Assembly (NCBI GenBank): GCA_041161565.1
Contig: JBEAUF010000156.1
Span: 9,916-73,915 of the forward strand
DNA length: 64,000 nt
Direction: 5' to 3'
DNA from: Planctomycetota bacterium
Lineage (GTDB): Bacteria; Planctomycetota; Planctomycetia; Planctomycetales; Planctomycetaceae
The notes below the pieces were generated by a model. That model had not been told where the DNA came from. It worked only from the letters and a program-made list of their open reading frames with translations, and ran no database searches. The translations under genes were made by a program, and so were the position numbers. Below are positions 3,860 to 59,493 of this stretch, piece by piece. The number at the start of each line of letters is the position of its first letter. The stretch's first letter is position 1.

Positions 3860-6031
3860 CTACTTCGGGCCGGGAGGGCAATATTCTCTGAGCCACGAGA
3901 AAATTTCGTTGTGCCAATACCTGCTGTTGGCCGGTTTGAGCACCCAGTGACCCTCGTCGGGAAAGTTGATGTACTTGCTGGGCACCCCAAGACGCTGCAG
4001 GGTTGTGAACAGCTGGTCCCCCTCGGAGACGGGCACGCGGAAGTCGAGATCGTTGTGGATGATCAACATCGGTGTCCGAAAGTTGGCCGCGAACCGATGG
4101 GGGGAGTGCTTTTCGTAGGATTCGCGGTTGGCCCCCCACGGAGGACCACCGTGTTCGTACTCGTCAAACCAGAGTTCCTCGGTCGTGGCGTACATGCTTT
4201 CAAAGTTGTAGACGCCACAGTGCGTCACAAGAGTTTTGAACTTGGTTGTATGGCCCTGAAACCAGTTCATCATGTAGCCGCCGAACGAAGCACCTGCGGA
4301 AAACATCCGCTGCGAATCGATGTAGTCCTGCTTTTCGAGGAATTCCAGTCCGGCCATCAGGTCAACATAACAGCGGCCCCCCCAATCCCCGCTGATCTGG
4401 TCGGTGTATTTCTGGCCAAATCCGGTGCTGCCCCGAGGATTTGGAGCAGCAACGACGTAGCCCTGGGCTGCCCAGATCTGAGGATTCCAGCGAAAGCTCC
4501 AGCCGTCCGACCAGGCGCCCTGGGGACCACCGTGGACCAAAAACGCGAGCGGCCAGCGGCGACTTTTGTCGAAGCCCGGTGGCTGCAGAATCCACATCTG
4601 CATGGGATCACCATCGGCACCCGGAACTTCCACCGAGGATGCGTCAGGGAGATCCAGTTGTGCGAGCAGCTCGGCGTTGGCTCTGGACAGATCCAGACCT
4701 GGCAGACGAGTGCGGAGGATTTCGGGTTCCAGTAATGCCGCGTAGACTTCCGGGGGAGCGGTCAACCGACTCCGGTTGCAGACGAGAACTGCTCCGTCAG
4801 CCGAGACTGCGAGCCCGGAGAATGTACCTGCACCCTGTGCCTTTTCGACCACGTCGGGTTTACTCACGGTGATACCGAAGACCGGTTTCTCTCCACGAAA
4901 CTCAGCAGTCGTGAGCAGCCGCTGCTCGTCCCTCCAAACAAGTTCATCGAACGACAAATCGATTTTCTCGGTGAGCGAACGCGGCTGACTGGTAAGAGTC
5001 CCGTCCGGCTGGCAGTCCGCCAGCATGATTTCCCACTTGTCCGCCTCATAACCGGCTCGACGCTGTCTGCGATACGCAAACTGACGCCCGGAGGGCGAAA
5101 ACGTCGGCAGACCATCGGCAGCCGGATTTGACTCGGTGAGAGTCTGCCAGGAAGTGGTTCCGCCTGAGATGGGCACGCGGCACAGGTCGTAGTTCGTGCT
5201 CCACGCCTCATTCAACGCTGGCACAGCAGTAAATATCAGATGTGAGTTGTCCGGGGAAAAGCAGAAATCCGCCGTCGCCGAAAAGGTACTTGACGTGGGA
5301 TATGCGTCACGATCCCCCGGCGTCACGTCGCGTGGAACCCCGGCCCGCAGCTCCCACTCCGACACCGGCTCAACATCAACCACAAACAGGTGCTGTCGCT
5401 TGTCCTCAACGTAGCTGTCCCAGTGCCTGTAGAACAGCCTGCGATGAACCCGCGCCTTCACCGGAGAAGCTGCACGCTCCTCATCCAGAGCTTTGTTCTT
5501 CGCGTCGCTTTCCGAAAACGGCAGAGTTGAAAACTCGGGAGCAACTGCGGAAACGAACGCGATATGCCGCCCATCCGGAGACCATACCCCGCTGGAAGCG
5601 CCGGTACTGATACTGGTCAGCTGCCGAGCTTCGCCACCGAGTGAACTGATGACCCACAGCTGACTGCTGCCGGAGCGATTTGATTCGAATAAAATCCAGC
5701 GCCCGTCCGGTGACCACCGCGGATTGGAGTCGCGTCCGGAGGGGTTGGTGAGCTGACGCGGGGGCGAACGGAGATCCGTGGGCGCGACCCACAGGCGGGA
5801 CACCGATTTATTCAACCGGGAATCCGTGATTTCCGTCACAGCGTAGGCCACCCACTGTCCGGTGGACTCAAGCGCTGGGGCCCCCACACGCCGAAACGAC
5901 AGCAGATCCTCAACGCTCATCGGTCTCCGAGCAGGAACAGGAGCTGGACTGGACGTCTGAGCAGTCGCCGAGGACATCAGGATCACCAACAGCCCCACAG
6001 CAGAAACGCGAACCAGCAACGATCCGATCAT
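3860..6031 (-). CDS. S9 family serine peptidase (prolyl oligopeptidase/acylaminoacyl-peptidase type) with N-terminal beta-propeller
   Basis: 723 aa with signal peptide MIGSLLVRVSAVGLLVILMSSATAQ. TolB-like propeller repeats are present (NPRWSPDGRWILFESNRSG, SGVWSPDGRHIAF). The nucleophile elbow is GASFGGY, followed by downstream HNDLDFRVP and FPDEGHW. GGAG lies 8 nt upstream of the ATG. Confidence 0.9.
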   Translation of the reverse strand: MIGSLLVRVSAVGLLVILMSSATAQTSSPAPVPARRPMSVEDLLSFRRVGAPALESTGQWVAYAVTEITDSRLNKSVSRLWVAPTDLRSPPRQLTNPSGRDSNPRWSPDGRWILFESNRSGSSQLWVISSLGGEARQLTSISTGASSGVWSPDGRHIAFVSAVAPEFSTLPFSESDAKNKALDEERAASPVKARVHRRLFYRHWDSYVEDKRQHLFVVDVEPVSEWELRAGVPRDVTPGDRDAYPTSSTFSATADFCFSPDNSHLIFTAVPALNEAWSTNYDLCRVPISGGTTSWQTLTESNPAADGLPTFSPSGRQFAYRRQRRAGYEADKWEIMLADCQPDGTLTSQPRSLTEKIDLSFDELVWRDEQRLLTTAEFRGEKPVFGITVSKPDVVEKAQGAGTFSGLAVSADGAVLVCNRSRLTAPPEVYAALLEPEILRTRLPGLDLSRANAELLAQLDLPDASSVEVPGADGDPMQMWILQPPGFDKSRRWPLAFLVHGGPQGAWSDGWSFRWNPQIWAAQGYVVAAPNPRGSTGFGQKYTDQISGDWGGRCYVDLMAGLEFLEKQDYIDSQRMFSAGASFGGYMMNWFQGHTTKFKTLVTHCGVYNFESMYATTEELWFDEYEHGGPPWGANRESYEKHSPHRFAANFRTPMLIIHNDLDFRVPVSEGDQLFTTLQRLGVPSKYINFPDEGHWVLKPANSRYWHNEIFSWLREYCPPGPK

Positions 6032-6627: not shown

Positions 6628-7037
6628 TGGAACTCCTTCATGACGACAGCACACACTTGCCTGATGCGATCCCCGGTGCCGGGTGCCAGCCGCTGACAAT
6701 CGATCGCCGGCCGCACTTGATACTCTACAGACGGCAATTGCCGAGCCCGTTATGAAAAGGATTCTCGGAGGCGAAAAAAGGGAGTTTTCCCTATCAAAGA
6801 CGGCAAGCTGAGCAGCTGATTACGATCGTAGGGCCGAGAATGACGGTATGGTGGCCATAGAGCGTCCCGGATATCGGGCGCCCGACTGTCCCTGGGGCGC
6901 CCCAATTGCAAAGCAGTTTTGCGGAACTCACTGCAATTTCATCGTTGGCAGCCATACAATTCAGACTGCCGGGGTCCGTTCCTCAGCCGCAATCACATTC
7001 GCCACGATCATTTCCACCGCCCCCCGGGACACCTGGC

Positions 7038-8195
7038 ATGCCAGCCTCCAGCTTTCTGATTGCATGGGCCCAGCTGACCCATCAGCGAGTGAAACTGATC
7101 GTAGCCTGCGCCGGTGTCGTGGTCGCCGTGATGCTGATGCTTGTGCAACTCGGGATCCGTGAAGGGGCCATGGACAACAGCGTGGCCATCGCCCGCAGGT
7201 TCACGGCCGACCTGGTAATGGTCAGCCCACGAACGAAGACCATTTTTGCCTCAGCCACTTTTCCCCGGGTCCTGCTGTACCGCGCAGGGGCGCTGCCTGA
7301 AGTGGAGAAGGTAACCGAGATGTACATGGCCCAGGGACGCTTCCGCAATCCATGGGATCGGCTGGAGTTTCCTGTGAGTCTCTACGGAATCGACCCGCAG
7401 GACCCCATGATGCAGCTCCCGGGAATTGAAGCTTTTACCCAGGAGTTACAGGAGCAGGACCGGGTACTGTTTGACGGACTCAGCCGCAAGAACTACGGCC
7501 CCGTACTTGGATTTCTCCGGCAGCAGGGAATGCTGGACGTGGAGGTCAACCTGCGAAAAGTCCGCATTATTGGGGCGATCAACGTCGGCATCTCGATAAA
7601 TACGGATGGCAACCTGTATATGTCGCCAGCCAATTTCCTGCGACTGTTTCCCGACCGTCGCCCCGGCGCGGCGGACGTTGGACTCGTTCGACTGCAACCT
7701 GGCACCGACGTCGAGCAGGTCCGCAGGCGTTTGCAGCAACTCGCCGGTAACGAAGCGAAAGTCATGACCCACGAAGAACTCGTCAATGGCGAAATTGCCT
7801 TCATCCGCGAAAATGCACCGATCGACTTCATCTTCGGCATGGGTGCGGCTGTTGGCTTTTTTGTGGGCTTCGTGGTTGTTTATCAGATCCTCTACACAGA
7901 AGTGACCAACCACCTCCCGCAATACGCAACACTCAAAGCCATGGGGTTTTCAGACAGCTATCTGCTGCGAGTCGTCTTTCATCAGGCCATGCTCCTGTCA
8001 GGTCTGGGCTATCTGCCCGGTTTCTTTCTCGCCATCGTGCTTTACCGCGTGGCAACCAACGCAATTCAGATGCAGTTTGAAATGACAGTCTCTCGAGCAG
8101 CGCTGGTGTTCTGCCTGACGGTTCTGATGTGCTGCCTCAGCGCTCTCATGGCCATGCGCCGGATCCGCACTGCAGATCCGGCCGAGGTTTTTTGA
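7038..8195 (+). CDS. DevC-type ABC exporter permease (FtsX-like)
   Basis: The ATG at 7038 gives MPASSFLIAWAQLTHQRVKLIVACAGVVVAVMLMLVQLGIREG...ADLVMVSPRTKT, which matches the DevC/FtsX-like N-terminal pattern. The C-terminal four-TM FtsX region is VGFFVGFVVVYQILYTEV...LSGLGYLPGFFLAIVLY. Confidence 0.85.
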   Translation: MPASSFLIAWAQLTHQRVKLIVACAGVVVAVMLMLVQLGIREGAMDNSVAIARRFTADLVMVSPRTKTIFASATFPRVLLYRAGALPEVEKVTEMYMAQGRFRNPWDRLEFPVSLYGIDPQDPMMQLPGIEAFTQELQEQDRVLFDGLSRKNYGPVLGFLRQQGMLDVEVNLRKVRIIGAINVGISINTDGNLYMSPANFLRLFPDRRPGAADVGLVRLQPGTDVEQVRRRLQQLAGNEAKVMTHEELVNGEIAFIRENAPIDFIFGMGAAVGFFVGFVVVYQILYTEVTNHLPQYATLKAMGFSDSYLLRVVFHQAMLLSGLGYLPGFFLAIVLYRVATNAIQMQFEMTVSRAALVFCLTVLMCCLSALMAMRRIRTADPAEVF

Positions 8196-8428
8196 AGGCT
8201 CAGGAGCCTGCAGGGGCTGGGTTTGTAAAAATGACAATTCAGCTCGCTTGTAATTTTTGCAACGGCCACTCCTGCACACTCGCCGTTGCCCCAAATCAAT
8301 TTCCAAACCGCGCTTTATTAAAATCACAAACCATTACCAAATAACGATTTACAACCTTTCCAAAACAATTTCAGAAGCTGACCGTAAAGATTCAGAGGCC
8401 ATTGGCACGCAGCTTGCATATTACTTTG

Positions 8429-8608
8429 CCAGAGAGACGGAAACTGAATCTGAGATCGTCAGTTCCGTGCCGTGGACCTGAGAGCTCCACGGATCCGTGA
8501 GAGAGATGGGCAGTTCGCCTGAGAAACGAATTGCCGACTGCAAGTGCCTGAGAGACCTTGCGGTCCACCACAAAGCCTCCGAGTTCCCCTGAACCGGAGG
8601 TTTTTTTG
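8429..8608 (+). ncRNA. candidate small RNA or terminator-containing leader with a reiterated CCUGAGAGA loop motif
   Basis: No credible ORF covers this stretch. Four consecutive hairpins are present. HP0 is 8442-8464, with arms AACTGA/TCAGTT. HP1 is 8470-8492, with arms CCGTGGA/TCCACGG. HP2 is 8509-8535, with a 9-bp stem containing one G-T pair. HP3 is 8538-8563, with a 7-bp stem containing one T-G pair. Each hairpin has (C)CUGAGA(G/A) in its loop. Single-stranded copies lie at 8429-8437 and 8497-8506. The element ends in a stem plus T7 terminator. A weak -10-like TATTAC sits at 8419-8424. Confidence 0.4.
8576..8607 (+). terminator. rho-independent terminator
   Basis: The stem pairs CCTCCG (8576-8581) with CGGAGG (8595-8600), with an inner GTT/AAC extension, and is followed directly by TTTTTTT (8601-8607). 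The orientation is plus-strand only, because the opposite strand lacks a U-tract. Confidence 0.7.
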
Positions 8609-8791
8609 TGCGCGCATGCGATCGATGCCGGTGACACGCGCCGTCCGGATGACCGCTCCTGAACGGCCGTCACCACATCGACAGGGTTTCAGCAAACAAC
8701 CTGGTCTGATACAACCACGGCAACAGCTCCCGTCCCACTCCGCACCGTTGTCGGCCAACTGCCGCCGGTTTATCTCCAGAGGAGTTTTTTC

Positions 8792-9667
8792 GTGCATCAG
8801 ATTTCGTTTCGAACCTGCCTGATCTTCACCGCCATTCACCTTCTGTCGCCGGGCAGCATTCTCGCGGATGACCTTGCACGCGGACTGGTGTTCCTCGCTC
8901 CATTTGACGGCAGCTTCGATGCAACCGTCGGCACTGACCGCACCCTCTGCACCGCAGAAAATCTCAAGCGCCAGGTGATCAGTCGGGGAAATCAGCGTTC
9001 CGACGTGCACCTTGTCCCCGACGCCGGCCGGTACGGCGGTGCGTTGCGTTTCACCGATGGCGCGGCCACCCAGGTAACCATGTTCCACGGCAGCAACACG
9101 GGCTACCGCAGCCAGAATTGGTCAGGCACAGTATCCATGTGGCTGCGACTGAGCCCCGATGAGGATTTGAAGCCCGGCTACTGCGATCCCCTGCAGATCA
9201 CCGACAAGGAATGGAATAACGCCGCTTTCTTCGTGGATTTTGACAAGGATCTGCCGCGTGTGTTTCGACTGGGTGTCTTCCCCGACTACAAATCCTGGAA
9301 TCCTCGCGACACCCCATGGGAGCAGATCGCAGTTGCCGAACGCCCGATGGTGCCGGTACCACGCCCGCCCTTCCGACGCACCGAATGGACGCATGTGGCA
9401 TGGACTTTTTCAGGACTCAACAGCGATGGCTCCGACGGACTCGCCGAACTTTACCTCAACGGCCAGTCCCAGGGCAGGCTGAAACGCCCCATGACCTTCT
9501 CATGGCAACTCGACAAAACCGCAATTATGCTTGGAATTGCATACACGGGTGACTTCGACGAATTGGCCATCTACGACCGCGCCCTGTCCGCCGCAGAGGT
9601 CGAGACACTCTATCGCCTGCCGAAGGGTCTGACGGGAATCATTCCAGCCAGTTCCGGGAACCGTTAG
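8792..9667 (+). CDS. secreted LamG (concanavalin A-like lectin/glucanase) domain protein
   Basis: GTG start at 8792 with AGAGGAG 8 nt upstream. The signal peptide is MHQISFRTCLIFTAIHLLSPGSILA. The terminal motif GDFDELAIYDRALSAAEVETLY is typical of LamG-domain proteins. Confidence 0.8.
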   Translation: MHQISFRTCLIFTAIHLLSPGSILADDLARGLVFLAPFDGSFDATVGTDRTLCTAENLKRQVISRGNQRSDVHLVPDAGRYGGALRFTDGAATQVTMFHGSNTGYRSQNWSGTVSMWLRLSPDEDLKPGYCDPLQITDKEWNNAAFFVDFDKDLPRVFRLGVFPDYKSWNPRDTPWEQIAVAERPMVPVPRPPFRRTEWTHVAWTFSGLNSDGSDGLAELYLNGQSQGRLKRPMTFSWQLDKTAIMLGIAYTGDFDELAIYDRALSAAEVETLYRLPKGLTGIIPASSGNR

Positions 9668-51715: not shown

Positions 51716-53794
51716 TTAATAAGTCAGCACGAGATCCATGAACATGCCATATAAAGTTTCCGCCTTGCCAGAACTTCCTGACACCGCCGCAATCGGATCA
51801 AGCACTCCGTAAAGATCATCAAACCCCGCTCCAGGAATCAATGATGACAGGCCGCCCGCCACAATAATGTTATCACTTAGCCGTGGGCGGTACTCCAGAC
51901 CAAGACTCAGATCCGTTCCGATACTTCGTGCGATCTGATCCTGAAAAGTAAAACGCTCCAGTACCTCTGTCTGGTCAAACCACAGAAAGTTCACGTTGCT
52001 GATCGCTCTGAGCTTCGGTGTGATCTCAAAGTCCATCCCCGCATTCAGCAAACGCACTCCCGGATTCACAAAATTGCTCTGTCCCTGAAACTTGCTGCTT
52101 CGCAGATTTGCCAGCAAACTCTCCCGCTGCGTCAGGTTCACCCCAAACAGCTTAATCTGCTGCCGCTGCCAGAAACTGAACTGCCCACCGGCAAAGTTGG
52201 GATTGTCCAGCACCGCATCAAATCCCTCCGCCTCTCCATCGTTCGGATCATCGTCCCCGGAGGCCCAGAAACCGGATGTGCGAAAGCGAATCCAGTCCCG
52301 ATCAATCGACAATTCAATAGCCGCCATATTCGCCCGGATATCAGCCCTTTGGCCCTCAATCGGATTCAGACTGTCTCGCCCGGTCACGTGATAAAATGCG
52401 TGGCTGATATTGACTCGACCAATATGCCCATCACCCGCGAAGCCAAAATAATACGCATCCACTTCATGCGGCCGGAATACCCCGGATGGATCAGGCCTGA
52501 CAAGGAATTCATTGCGGTCAAACTCAATGCTGGGCTGATCATTGTTATAGTGAAAACTAAGCTGTGCTGTGTATCCGGGAAACACAAAGTCCTGCCGGAA
52601 ATAATTCAGGATCAGAGTGTTCTGATGCCGGTCGTCAAATGTGTTCAGCAGACTAGTCGTCTCCTTTTCAGTCTGATCGAACCAGATCACATTAAACTGG
52701 TCCCGATTGGCAAGTCGAGTGCCAAAAATCCTCACCGCTCGGTTCGTGTCAGCAAAGACAAAACCTCGAAAGTCACTGACAAACGGCTGCGATCCTGCGC
52801 GCACAGACACAAAATCGTAGTCCGGACTCAGGTCCGCAAGCTTCGCCTCAACAAACCATTCCTCCAGTGCTGCGTCCTGACGATGGCGCGATGCCCCCCT
52901 CCGCACATCAGGATTCACAACCGCAAGCTCGTTCACATCCAGATAATTCAGGTTCAAAACCGGGGCTGCACGCAACTGCCAGTCAAAGGGTTTGAAGCCT
53001 GCGTCGCCATGCGAAAGATTGAACTGCAGTTTCAGGTTGTTCACGAAGAAATATTGGTCAGGATCACCGTAAAACTCCCGCTGGCCGGCTCCCACCGTAC
53101 TTTCAAACGGGGAGGTCGGAATCGGAGTCTGTCGAAATTCGTGCAGCATGAAATTCGTCGCCGTAATATTCAAAAACGTATGCTGACCGATGATCGGATA
53201 GTCTCCCTTCAGCACATTTTGATTGTACGGATCCCACCAATGTCCTTTCTCGTAGGGCTGGTCCACCCCCTGCGGATTTGGATCCGAGTATCGCTGCCAG
53301 TCCGGAAAGCCAGCCCTCCAACGATCTTCAATTGGAACAAAATCGAGGCTTTGCTGGGCCTCGCTCGGCCGAATACCAGAAGCCCCCGTGTACCCCAGCG
53401 GCGTGCGAATCAGCGGACGGACAAACTCCGGAGCAGACGGCGCCGGCTGAAATTCCTCCGCGACTCCCTGTGACGGCACCGCAGGCTGAAGGACATCCGG
53501 ACGCGCCTCACCACCAGCGCCCTCCTGTGAACCCACAGGCCCTGCAAACTGGTCTGCAGCCGCCCCGCCAGCCGCCACCTGAAACTGCGGAACCAGTCCG
53601 TCAGCGAATGGCGGTGTACCTGGAGCCTCACCCGCATCCTGCAAAAAGCCGCAGGCCGTCGGCGGAAACACAGACGCAAGGCAAAGCATCATCGCTGCGC
53701 ACACAGGAAACCGCGGTGACGGGAGACACCCCGCCAACTTCCTCGCGGCGGAAATCCGCCGGAACTTCACCGGTTCCGCGATATATCCGTGCAT
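51716..53794 (-). CDS. putative outer-membrane beta-barrel protein (hypothetical)
   Basis: The track ORF runs to GTG 53911. I prefer ATG 53794, which has GGAAG upstream and gives a basic N-region followed by the hydrophobic FPVCAAMMLCLASVF. The body is rich in alternating aromatic/polar stretches and Gly/Asn/Asp turns. The C-terminus ends DLVLTY. It lies 63 nt upstream of the cytochrome gene. Confidence 0.7.
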   Translation of the reverse strand: MHGYIAEPVKFRRISAARKLAGCLPSPRFPVCAAMMLCLASVFPPTACGFLQDAGEAPGTPPFADGLVPQFQVAAGGAAADQFAGPVGSQEGAGGEARPDVLQPAVPSQGVAEEFQPAPSAPEFVRPLIRTPLGYTGASGIRPSEAQQSLDFVPIEDRWRAGFPDWQRYSDPNPQGVDQPYEKGHWWDPYNQNVLKGDYPIIGQHTFLNITATNFMLHEFRQTPIPTSPFESTVGAGQREFYGDPDQYFFVNNLKLQFNLSHGDAGFKPFDWQLRAAPVLNLNYLDVNELAVVNPDVRRGASRHRQDAALEEWFVEAKLADLSPDYDFVSVRAGSQPFVSDFRGFVFADTNRAVRIFGTRLANRDQFNVIWFDQTEKETTSLLNTFDDRHQNTLILNYFRQDFVFPGYTAQLSFHYNNDQPSIEFDRNEFLVRPDPSGVFRPHEVDAYYFGFAGDGHIGRVNISHAFYHVTGRDSLNPIEGQRADIRANMAAIELSIDRDWIRFRTSGFWASGDDDPNDGEAEGFDAVLDNPNFAGGQFSFWQRQQIKLFGVNLTQRESLLANLRSSKFQGQSNFVNPGVRLLNAGMDFEITPKLRAISNVNFLWFDQTEVLERFTFQDQIARSIGTDLSLGLEYRPRLSDNIIVAGGLSSLIPGAGFDDLYGVLDPIAAVSGSSGKAETLYGMFMDLVLTY

Positions 53795-59301: not shown

Positions 59302-59493
59302 ATGCTTGTACTGTCCCGTCAGAGCGACGAAGCAATCATTATTGGTGACAATATCCGCGTAACCATCGTGGAAGTGCGGGGCGACAAGGTGCGGATCGGC
59401 ATTGATGCCCCCAGGGATGTCACTGTTCACCGCCAGGAAATCTACGACGCCATTCGACGCGATTCCGCCGGGCGCGAAGCCCGCAGCAACTGA
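59302..59493 (+). CDS. csrA: carbon storage regulator CsrA
   Basis: 63 aa: MLVLSRQSDEAIIIGDNIRVTIVEVRGDKVRIGIDAPRDVTVHRQEIY is near-canonical CsrA. AAGGAG lies 8 nt upstream. Confidence 0.95.
   Translation: MLVLSRQSDEAIIIGDNIRVTIVEVRGDKVRIGIDAPRDVTVHRQEIYDAIRRDSAGREARSN

Follow-up and report, generated by a model that had tools for sequence, protein, structure and literature searches.

The question raised by the locus described here is what kind of element is formed by a run of hairpins that present the same short loop motif between two protein-coding genes of a planctomycete. The hairpins are located within a stretch of 64,000 nucleotides from contig JBEAUF010000156.1 of a Planctomycetota bacterium, here called the window, in the intergenic region between a gene for a DevC/MacB-type ABC permease (6906-8195) and a gene for a LamG-domain protein (8792-9667). 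As judged from the sequence and from a comparison with its homologues, the locus is a discrete, structured, non-coding RNA gene on the plus strand. The assignment to a previously undescribed small RNA (sRNA) gene, the general design of which has precedents, is well supported by these comparisons, and the RNA most likely acts as a regulatory RNA.

The initial annotation, which was made from the letters of the window alone, described four hairpins (HP0 to HP3) and additional copies of a common motif, and all of their coordinates and sequences were found to be exact when we read 8100-8900 again. The pentamer UGAGA occurred 5 times in the 133 nt from 8428 to 8560, compared with 0.104 copies expected from its frequency in the window (Poisson P of 9e-8, or approximately 9e-5 once corrected for all windows), such that the excess noted in the initial annotation was real. 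Elsewhere in the window, segments of 133 nt contained at most 2 copies, whichever strand was considered. Furthermore, 5 of the 23 matches to CCTGAGAGA with at most 1 mismatch on both strands were located inside 127 nt. The clustering of UGAGA is not due to chance.

To study the constraints on the motif, we compared the window with 7 homologues recovered on Planctomycetaceae-like metagenome contigs (L001, L002, L036, L039, L042, L046, and L026), which gave a total of 8 sequences from about 5 to 6 lineages. The heptamer CCUGAGA, located at the 5' side of a loop of 9 to 12 nt in three of the hairpins, was 100% identical in all three loops of all 8 sequences, whereas the identity was 70% in the stems and 52% in the other unpaired columns. 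When the window was compared with L026, the stem identity was as low as 58%. The loops appear to be constrained far more strongly than the stems, which is the signature of a displayed single-stranded motif. Two purine-rich tracts outside the hairpins were also retained. GAGAGA was found at the predicted 5' end of the RNA in 7 of the 8 sequences, with a shorter GAGA(CGA) in L001/L002, and the GAGAG of the linker between HP1 and HP2 was invariant in 8 of 8 sequences (columns 85 to 89 of the alignment, which we refer to as A3), with G(A/U) directly 5' of it in all 8.

The segment 8400-8615 had a predicted minimum free energy of -81.7 kcal/mol (z = -3.9), which was not attained by any of 200 dinucleotide shuffles, and the fold contained the hairpins of the array. 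In A3, the consensus of four hairpins and a terminator comprised 47 base pairs, and 94.9% of the cells were paired, compared with 85.1% in column shuffles and 35% to 47% when the partners were slid. Changes on both sides were observed in 20 of the 47 pairs, and the covariation score was 0.361, as compared with 0.184 for the shuffled alignments (0 of 500 reached the observed value) and 0.04 to 0.09 for slid partners. All cells were paired in HP1, with compensatory changes at 5 of 7 pairs, and in HP2, in which 5 sequences retained the G-U pair and 3 had A-U or G-C instead, while HP3 contained compensatory changes at 5 of 9 pairs; the heptamer was invariant in each. The HP0 stem contained compensatory changes at 4 of 5 pairs, while the motif in its loop was not conserved: the loop was AUCUGAGAUCG in the window, the anti-Shine-Dalgarno-like sequence GAUCCUCC in L036, L039, L042, and L046, and GAUCCUC in L001/L002. 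The view of the initial annotation that the array forms a discrete structured non-coding RNA, with stems that drift under a fixed loop motif, is borne out by these patterns, and the comparison with relatives that it had suggested yielded invariant loops, compensatory stem changes and a conserved terminator. The small open reading frames listed for the region were rejected as coding sequences, since the indels in the alignment were of 1, 2, 4, and 5 nt, the substitutions were compensatory and the frames were not conserved.

The assignment to the plus strand is supported by an excess of G-U cells over A-C cells in the A3 pairs (32 versus 9) and by the orientation of both the promoter and the terminator. 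A transcript from the minus strand would fold about equally well (-84 kcal/mol, z = -3.8), but the 32 G-U cells would then turn into A-C mismatches, compared with 9 in the other direction, and the sigma-54 promoter and the T7 terminator are both in the plus orientation. Another reading at odds with a plus-strand RNA is that the array acts at the level of DNA, as a repeated protein-binding site or as a repeat similar to repetitive extragenic palindromic (REP) elements. Arrays of heptamers are indeed common in phage genomes; however, the compensatory changes in the stems and the variable spacing of the motif argue for recognition as RNA, and a REP-like repeat is difficult to reconcile with a single copy in the window. 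We consider a minus-strand transcript or a DNA-level element to be highly improbable.

The boundaries of the gene are supported by the distribution of the conserved segments. In the intergenic region, the identity was highest in two palindromes (0.80), the promoter and the RNA (0.61 to 0.83), and dropped after 8627 to 0.24 to 0.42, which is the background level, up to the LamG gene; the conserved island stopped at the terminator. The terminator was present in 8 of 8 homologues as a stem followed by T6 to T8, although the stem sequence was completely different in L026, and an A-rich tract was located 5' of the stem in every homologue. In the window, the core stem CCTCCG/CGGAGG and the T7 run span 8576-8607, and the local fold directly 5' of the T run was -16.6 kcal/mol. 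A simple scan for terminators misses this site because the stem carries a bulged A. The initial annotation considered it to be the only canonical intrinsic terminator in the window. The terminator itself is real, but it is not the sole stem followed by a T run: others include one at 8160-8193 and one or two elsewhere. The structure at 8160-8193, in which a hairpin (CGGATC...GATCCG) at the 3' end of the devC-like gene is followed, 6 nt later, by a T6 run that overlaps the stop codon, resembles a terminator and would protect the sRNA promoter against read-through.

What the initial annotation missed are the sigma-54 (RpoN) promoter and the upstream palindromes, which define the unit of transcription and how it is regulated (Table 1). 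The promoter was the sole 16/16 match to TGGCACG-N4-TTGCW on both strands of the window, was located about 11 nt 5' of the first copy of the motif and was retained throughout the 8 homologues, even in the divergent L026, with TGGCAT and CTGC as tolerated variants. Transcription from sigma-54 promoters usually starts about 12 nt past the GC of the -12 element. The geometry would therefore place the start near 8429, at CCAGAGAGA, which gives a predicted RNA length of about 179 nt up to the 3' end at 8607. The second-best match in the window scored 15/16 (TGGCACTCGACTTGCC, minus strand, 52708-52739) and belongs, together with TGGCAAGTCGAGTGCC on the plus strand, to a perfect inverted repeat, so that a palindromic operator may be present here instead of a promoter. 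Among the other contigs, L028 contained a sigma-54 promoter 5' of a nifH-like gene (4600-4760; MRQVAIYGKGGIGKST...), with a duplicated CUGAGAUGUCGCAACAAC in the leader.

Table 1. Positions of the predicted RNA gene, its parts and its putative regulatory sites in the window
Feature	Position	Strand	Description
Palindrome 1, TGTAAAAATGACA	8224..8236	+	Candidate enhancer-binding-protein site, ~181 bp 5' of the -24 GG
Palindrome 2, TGTAATTTTTGCA	8249..8261	+	25 bp 3' of palindrome 1, -156 from the GG
Predicted sigma-54 (RpoN) promoter, TGGCACGcagcTTGCA (= TGGCACGCAGCTTGCA)	8403..8418	+	-24 GG at 8404-8405, -12 GC at 8416-8417
Predicted sRNA, ~179 nt	8429..8607	+	5' end from promoter geometry, 3' end from T7 run
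First motif tract, CCAGAGAGA	8429-8437	+	Direct sequence reading
Single-stranded purine tract AGAGAGA at RNA 5' end	8431..8437	+	
HP0	8442-8464 (core); 8437..8468 (extended)	+	Stem extended to ACGGAA/TTCCGT, loop variable
HP1	8470..8492	+	7-bp stem, loop CCUGAGAGC
HP1-HP2 single-stranded linker, GUGAGAGAGA	8497..8506	+	
HP2	8509..8535	+	8-9 bp stem, one G-U pair, loop CCUGAGAAA
HP3	8538-8563 (core); 8536..8565 (extended)	+	Loop UGCCUGAGAGAC, contains CCUGAGAGA
Intrinsic terminator	8570..8607	+	A-rich tract, bulged GC-rich stem CCTCCG-A-GTTC / GAAC-CGGAGG, T7

The two 13-bp palindromes, with the consensus TGYAA-N3-TKRCA, are located approximately 155 to 180 bp 5' of the promoter. Palindrome 1 was found at a matching distance (-176 to -186) in all 8 homologues and was the most conserved intergenic stretch outside the RNA, with the pairwise identity of 0.80 given above. 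A second site at 25 bp from the first was identified by regular expression in the window, L039, L042, and L046 (TGCAA-N3-TTACA), and by eye as TGTAATTTCTGCA in L001/L002, as TGTAAGAACTTCA at -161 in L026 and as the degenerate TGAAATTTCTACA in L036. The palindromes look like candidate sites of a dimeric enhancer-binding protein, and their arrangement is as expected for such sites, which are typically located roughly 80 to 200 bp 5' of the promoter. A sigma-54 promoter remains inactive as long as the complex has not been opened by an enhancer-binding protein. Both sigma-54 regulons and enhancer-binding proteins have been documented in Planctomycetia (PMC12316311).

The contigs with homologues were reached via the closest DevC and LamG homologues in Planctomycetaceae-like metagenome assemblies, with the exception of L026, a much more divergent copy that was identified by a pattern scan of metagenomes from the Joint Genome Institute. 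L039 was identical to L040 and L041, and L046 was identical to L047 and L048. The palindromes, the promoter, the four hairpins and the terminator were common to all homologues. A synteny walk via the DevC homologues indicated that the RNA is kept in the closest relatives only, and no copy was found near devC in L004 to L009, in which the DevC proteins were 76% to 81% identical. A covariance model built from the 8 homologues (R1) scored 174.8 bits over 8428-8607 and 127.9 bits in L026, and identified no second copy in the window and nothing else in approximately 346 kb of the relatives' loci. The sRNA family is new, and its distribution appears to be narrow, so far in one clade of the Planctomycetaceae.

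Two repeat structures were also noted in these contigs. Just 3' of the sRNA terminator in L026, the segment 826-912 contained GGATGGACATTCCTGTCCGT twice as direct copies and then one inverted copy, CGGACAGGAATGTCCA, which resembles a REP-like palindromic element. The intergenic region 6990-7300 in L004 contained, in duplicate, an element of roughly 120 nt (…CCTCGCCCCCGCAG.GGGAGAGGGGCCGGGG.GAGGGGG…GCAGTCGTCACTGCCCT…), followed by a tandem repeat of the type (GACAACT)n.

The distribution also bears on the alternative put forward in the initial annotation, that the array is part of a long attenuator-type 5' leader that controls the LamG gene in cis. The RNA is located 5' of the LamG gene on the same strand in 7 of the 8 loci, and there is an additional two-tier hairpin at 8630-8674, between the terminator and the LamG gene. 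However, the RNA is preceded by a sigma-54 promoter of its own, and the 185 nt from the conserved terminator to the LamG gene are at the background identity. The hairpin at 8630-8674 does exist in the window, as the initial annotation reported, but it is located inside the low-identity stretch and was conserved in no homologue; we consider it to be outside the element because the identity collapses after the terminator. Moreover, orthologues of the LamG gene were found without the RNA in L037, L043 to L045, and L050, whereas the RNA in L026 adjoins a gene for a tadA-like deaminase, with no LamG gene within the following 270 nt, and no conserved alternative antiterminator pairing was observed. 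The comparisons largely refute a LamG leader, to which we assign only a marginal chance. The neighbouring tadA-like gene in L026 was the reason for considering mimicry of a tRNA anticodon loop, with CUGAGAA as C32-A38, and this idea was dropped, as the loops are 9 to 12 nt long with inconsistent closing positions.

How might the RNA act? We propose that the locus is an independent sigma-54-type gene for an sRNA of about 180 nt that acts as a multivalent decoy for an RNA-binding regulator, and we estimate the probability of this model to be roughly 0.45. According to the model, an enhancer-binding protein bound to the two palindromes would activate the sigma-54 promoter, transcription would start near 8429 and end at the intrinsic terminator at 8607, and the RNA would only be made while one particular signalling pathway is on. 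The RNA would then act in trans through the three CCUGAGA loops and the two single-stranded GAGAGA tracts, and titrate a regulator that otherwise binds to purine-rich sites in mRNAs, following the logic of CrcZ and RsmZ. We prefer a decoy because the sites are purine-rich and mRNA-like, with five to six per molecule, because three non-homologous hairpins each keep the loop without drift, and because the motif is not anti-Shine-Dalgarno-like, unlike the reiterated seeds of RsaE and CcsR.

Several points weigh against this model. The 5' end, the sigma-54 dependence and the expression of the RNA are predictions from the sequence, and the protein bound by the decoy is hypothetical. With three loops and two tracts, the RNA would offer few binding sites for a sponge. 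Moreover, sRNAs that act by chaperone-dependent base pairing typically also end in a strong terminator that follows an A-rich stretch and has a U tail. NrsZ, the closest architectural analogue, has been proposed to act by base pairing between its loops and mRNA (PMC4253122). No RpoN box, GAFTGA motif or Hfq signature was identified in a six-frame translation of the window, and the signature search of the window revealed no gene for RpoN or for an enhancer-binding protein. The covariance model is supported by the 8 sequences (about 5 to 6 lineages) only. Finally, when one genome of each species (185,579 genomes) was scanned with the pattern "sigma-54 core + CTGAGA + CCTGAGA", 10 matches were obtained, none of which was real; the two with four motif copies (L012 and L016) were tandem repeats within coding sequence. 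However, the pattern demanded TGGCAC and TTGC and would miss the TGGCAT and CTGC variants seen in real homologues, so that the known distribution is a lower bound.

Nearly as likely as a decoy is an alternative in which the same sigma-54-dependent sRNA uses the three CCUGAGA loops as redundant seeds. Each seed would pair with UCUCAGG in an mRNA, or in several, by kissing or loop-linear contacts, a mode that has been proposed for NrsZ and demonstrated for multi-seed sRNAs such as RsaE/RoxS. The invariant block of 7 nt has the typical length of a seed, the terminator hairpin with its long U tail fits the base-pairing class, and NrsZ has the same layout, in which an RpoN promoter is combined with three stem-loops that share one loop motif, and acts on rhlA through this motif (PMC4253122). 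In addition, the GAUCCUCC sequence in the HP0 loop of four homologues could serve as an anti-Shine-Dalgarno seed in some lineages. On the other hand, the CCUGAGA motif is purine-rich and not anti-Shine-Dalgarno-like, and redundancy predicts that single loops should drift, which was not seen. The 10 UCUCAGG sites located outside the RNA on both strands of the window included none near the start of a gene in the sense orientation, although 64 kb is much too little sequence for such a comparison. On balance, we lean slightly towards a decoy as the mode of action.

If the RNA is a decoy, it may serve as the antagonist in a global post-transcriptional system of Planctomycetes that has yet to be described, in which a regulator that binds CCUGAGA/GAGAGA on mRNAs is titrated by a decoy induced via sigma-54. 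We regard this extension as speculative and rather unlikely, yet if true, the system would correspond in function to Csr/Rsm or Crc/Hfq, while both its motif and its protein would be new.

Scans of the sequence collections also revealed canonical sigma-54 promoters followed by tandem CCUGAGA arrays in unrelated contigs. In a phage family represented by L021 (49-141) and by L051 to L055 from IMG/VR (for example, L053 5398-5480), which is distantly related to the HMO-2011-type marine podoviruses, two or three tandem canonical sigma-54 promoters were directly followed by an array of CCCTGAGACTACCTGAGAATACCTGAGAATG with a period of 10 nt, starting at approximately the predicted +1 position. Sigma-54 early promoters in phage are unusual in themselves. 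Textbook sigma-54 promoters with 3 to 5 copies of (A)CCUGAGA(A), arranged in tandem units of 10 to 47 nt, were also identified in L023 (5088-5250), L027 (10353-10500), L029 (227-430), and L033 (minus strand, approximately 3553-3300). That the phage family and these four contigs make use of the same heptamer partner would be a still weaker extension of the global system outlined above. The arrays in L027 and L029 folded no better than shuffled sequences. In the viral contigs, triple non-coding arrays of two scrambled heptamers were found 33 and 35 times, compared with 23 times for CCTGAGA, whereas a sigma-54 promoter combined with 2 copies of the heptamer gave no matches for either scrambled version, as compared with 5 contigs, all from the one phage family, for the motif itself. 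A class of sigma-54 promoters with CCUGAGA arrays that extends across phyla is at most suggestive, since the controls weaken it, and we have not used these arrays as evidence.

Regulatory RNAs in planctomycetes are almost unexplored, and our literature searches found no description of a sigma-54-dependent sRNA in the phylum. The locus offers a complete and testable unit that consists of putative activator sites, a textbook promoter, a 180-nt RNA supported by covariation and a 7-nt motif that can be mutated. The palindromes provide a route to the activator and thereby to the inducing signal, while the partner could be approached through the loop motif. A protein partner would be a new RNA-binding regulator.

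How does the RNA compare with known systems? A cmscan search against Rfam 15, as suggested in the initial annotation, gave no match in the whole window at the gathering thresholds, which agrees with the absence of an already described family, and in 8150-8850 only noise was obtained at E <= 10 (RNAI with 17 bits and SNORA77 with 16 bits). The closest analogue in architecture is NrsZ, while CrcZ, Qrr, and RsmZ provide looser parallels.

Like CsrB, RsmY, and RsmZ, the RNA consists of varied hairpins that each show one short conserved loop motif. In those RNAs, however, the motif is GGA or ANGGA and expression depends on GacA or UvrY rather than on sigma-54. Here, as the initial annotation had pointed out, the loop motif is not the GGA site of CsrA: the loops contained no conserved GGA, the few GGA in the window sequence of the RNA were located in stems and were not conserved, and there was no match to the Rfam models of this group. 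A canonical CsrA sponge is unlikely, despite the csrA gene, which the initial annotation had correctly recognized. This gene (59302-59493, plus strand) encodes a homologue of 63 amino acids and has no strict sigma-54 promoter 5' of it in the window; a sigma-54 promoter has been predicted in the literature for csrA in Pirellula.

CrcZ and CrcY in Pseudomonas are RpoN/CbrB-dependent decoys for Hfq/Crc that carry several copies of a short purine-rich motif and titrate a translational repressor. The RNA studied here resembles CrcZ in that it is non-coding and is preceded by a predicted sigma-54 promoter and upstream activator sites. However, CrcZ is about 400 nt long and its A-rich AANAANAA motifs are mostly unstructured, whereas CCUGAGA is held in hairpin loops; the sole A-rich stretch in the RNA was the tract before the terminator, and no similarity to CrcZ was found in the sequence or in Rfam. 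The Qrr RNAs in Vibrio depend on sigma-54 and LuxO, which binds to the site TTGCA-N3-TGCAA. Similarities to Qrr include the sigma-54 promoter, the upstream 13-bp palindromes akin to TGYAA-N3-TKRCA, the multiple hairpins and the intrinsic terminator, but Qrr RNAs have one long single-stranded seed instead of reiterated loops, are encoded by several gene copies and are associated with a different half-site sequence. The Rfam model for Qrr gave no match at E <= 10 in 8150-8850.

In RsaE/RoxS and in the "cuckoo" RNA CcsR, two to four hairpins or unpaired regions repeat one short seed motif. Their motifs are C-rich or contain the anti-Shine-Dalgarno sequence CCUCC, whereas the motif here is purine-rich and CCUCC is limited to HP0 loops in some of the homologues. 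Among RNAs of planctomycetes, the only candidate that we met in the literature is the motif Rhodopirellula-1 (Weinberg 2010), which consists of one bulged hairpin, the base of which has a conserved sequence, and bears no resemblance to the multi-hairpin RNA (PMC2864571 supplement).

NrsZ in Pseudomonas is an RpoN/NtrC-dependent RNA of approximately 226 nt with three stem-loops, the loop motif of which (ACAGGCAG) is needed for function (PMC4253122). The two RNAs have in common a sigma-54 promoter with sites for an enhancer-binding activator, which are predicted here, a length of about 200 nt, the lack of coding capacity and three stem-loops with one loop motif. They differ in the motif itself, which is CCUGAGA here, and there was no match to the Rfam model for NrsZ, either at the gathering score or at E <= 10. 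Furthermore, the modules of NrsZ are near-identical direct repeats that include the stems, are processed apart and vary in copy number, whereas the stems are mutually unrelated here and only the loops are shared. NrsZ adjoins ntrC, while the RNA in the window is located between the devC-like and LamG genes in a different phylum. Should the partners of the RNA turn out to be mRNAs, the NrsZ-type design of sigma-54 control combined with reiterated loops would reach into a distant phylum, which would suggest convergent evolution.

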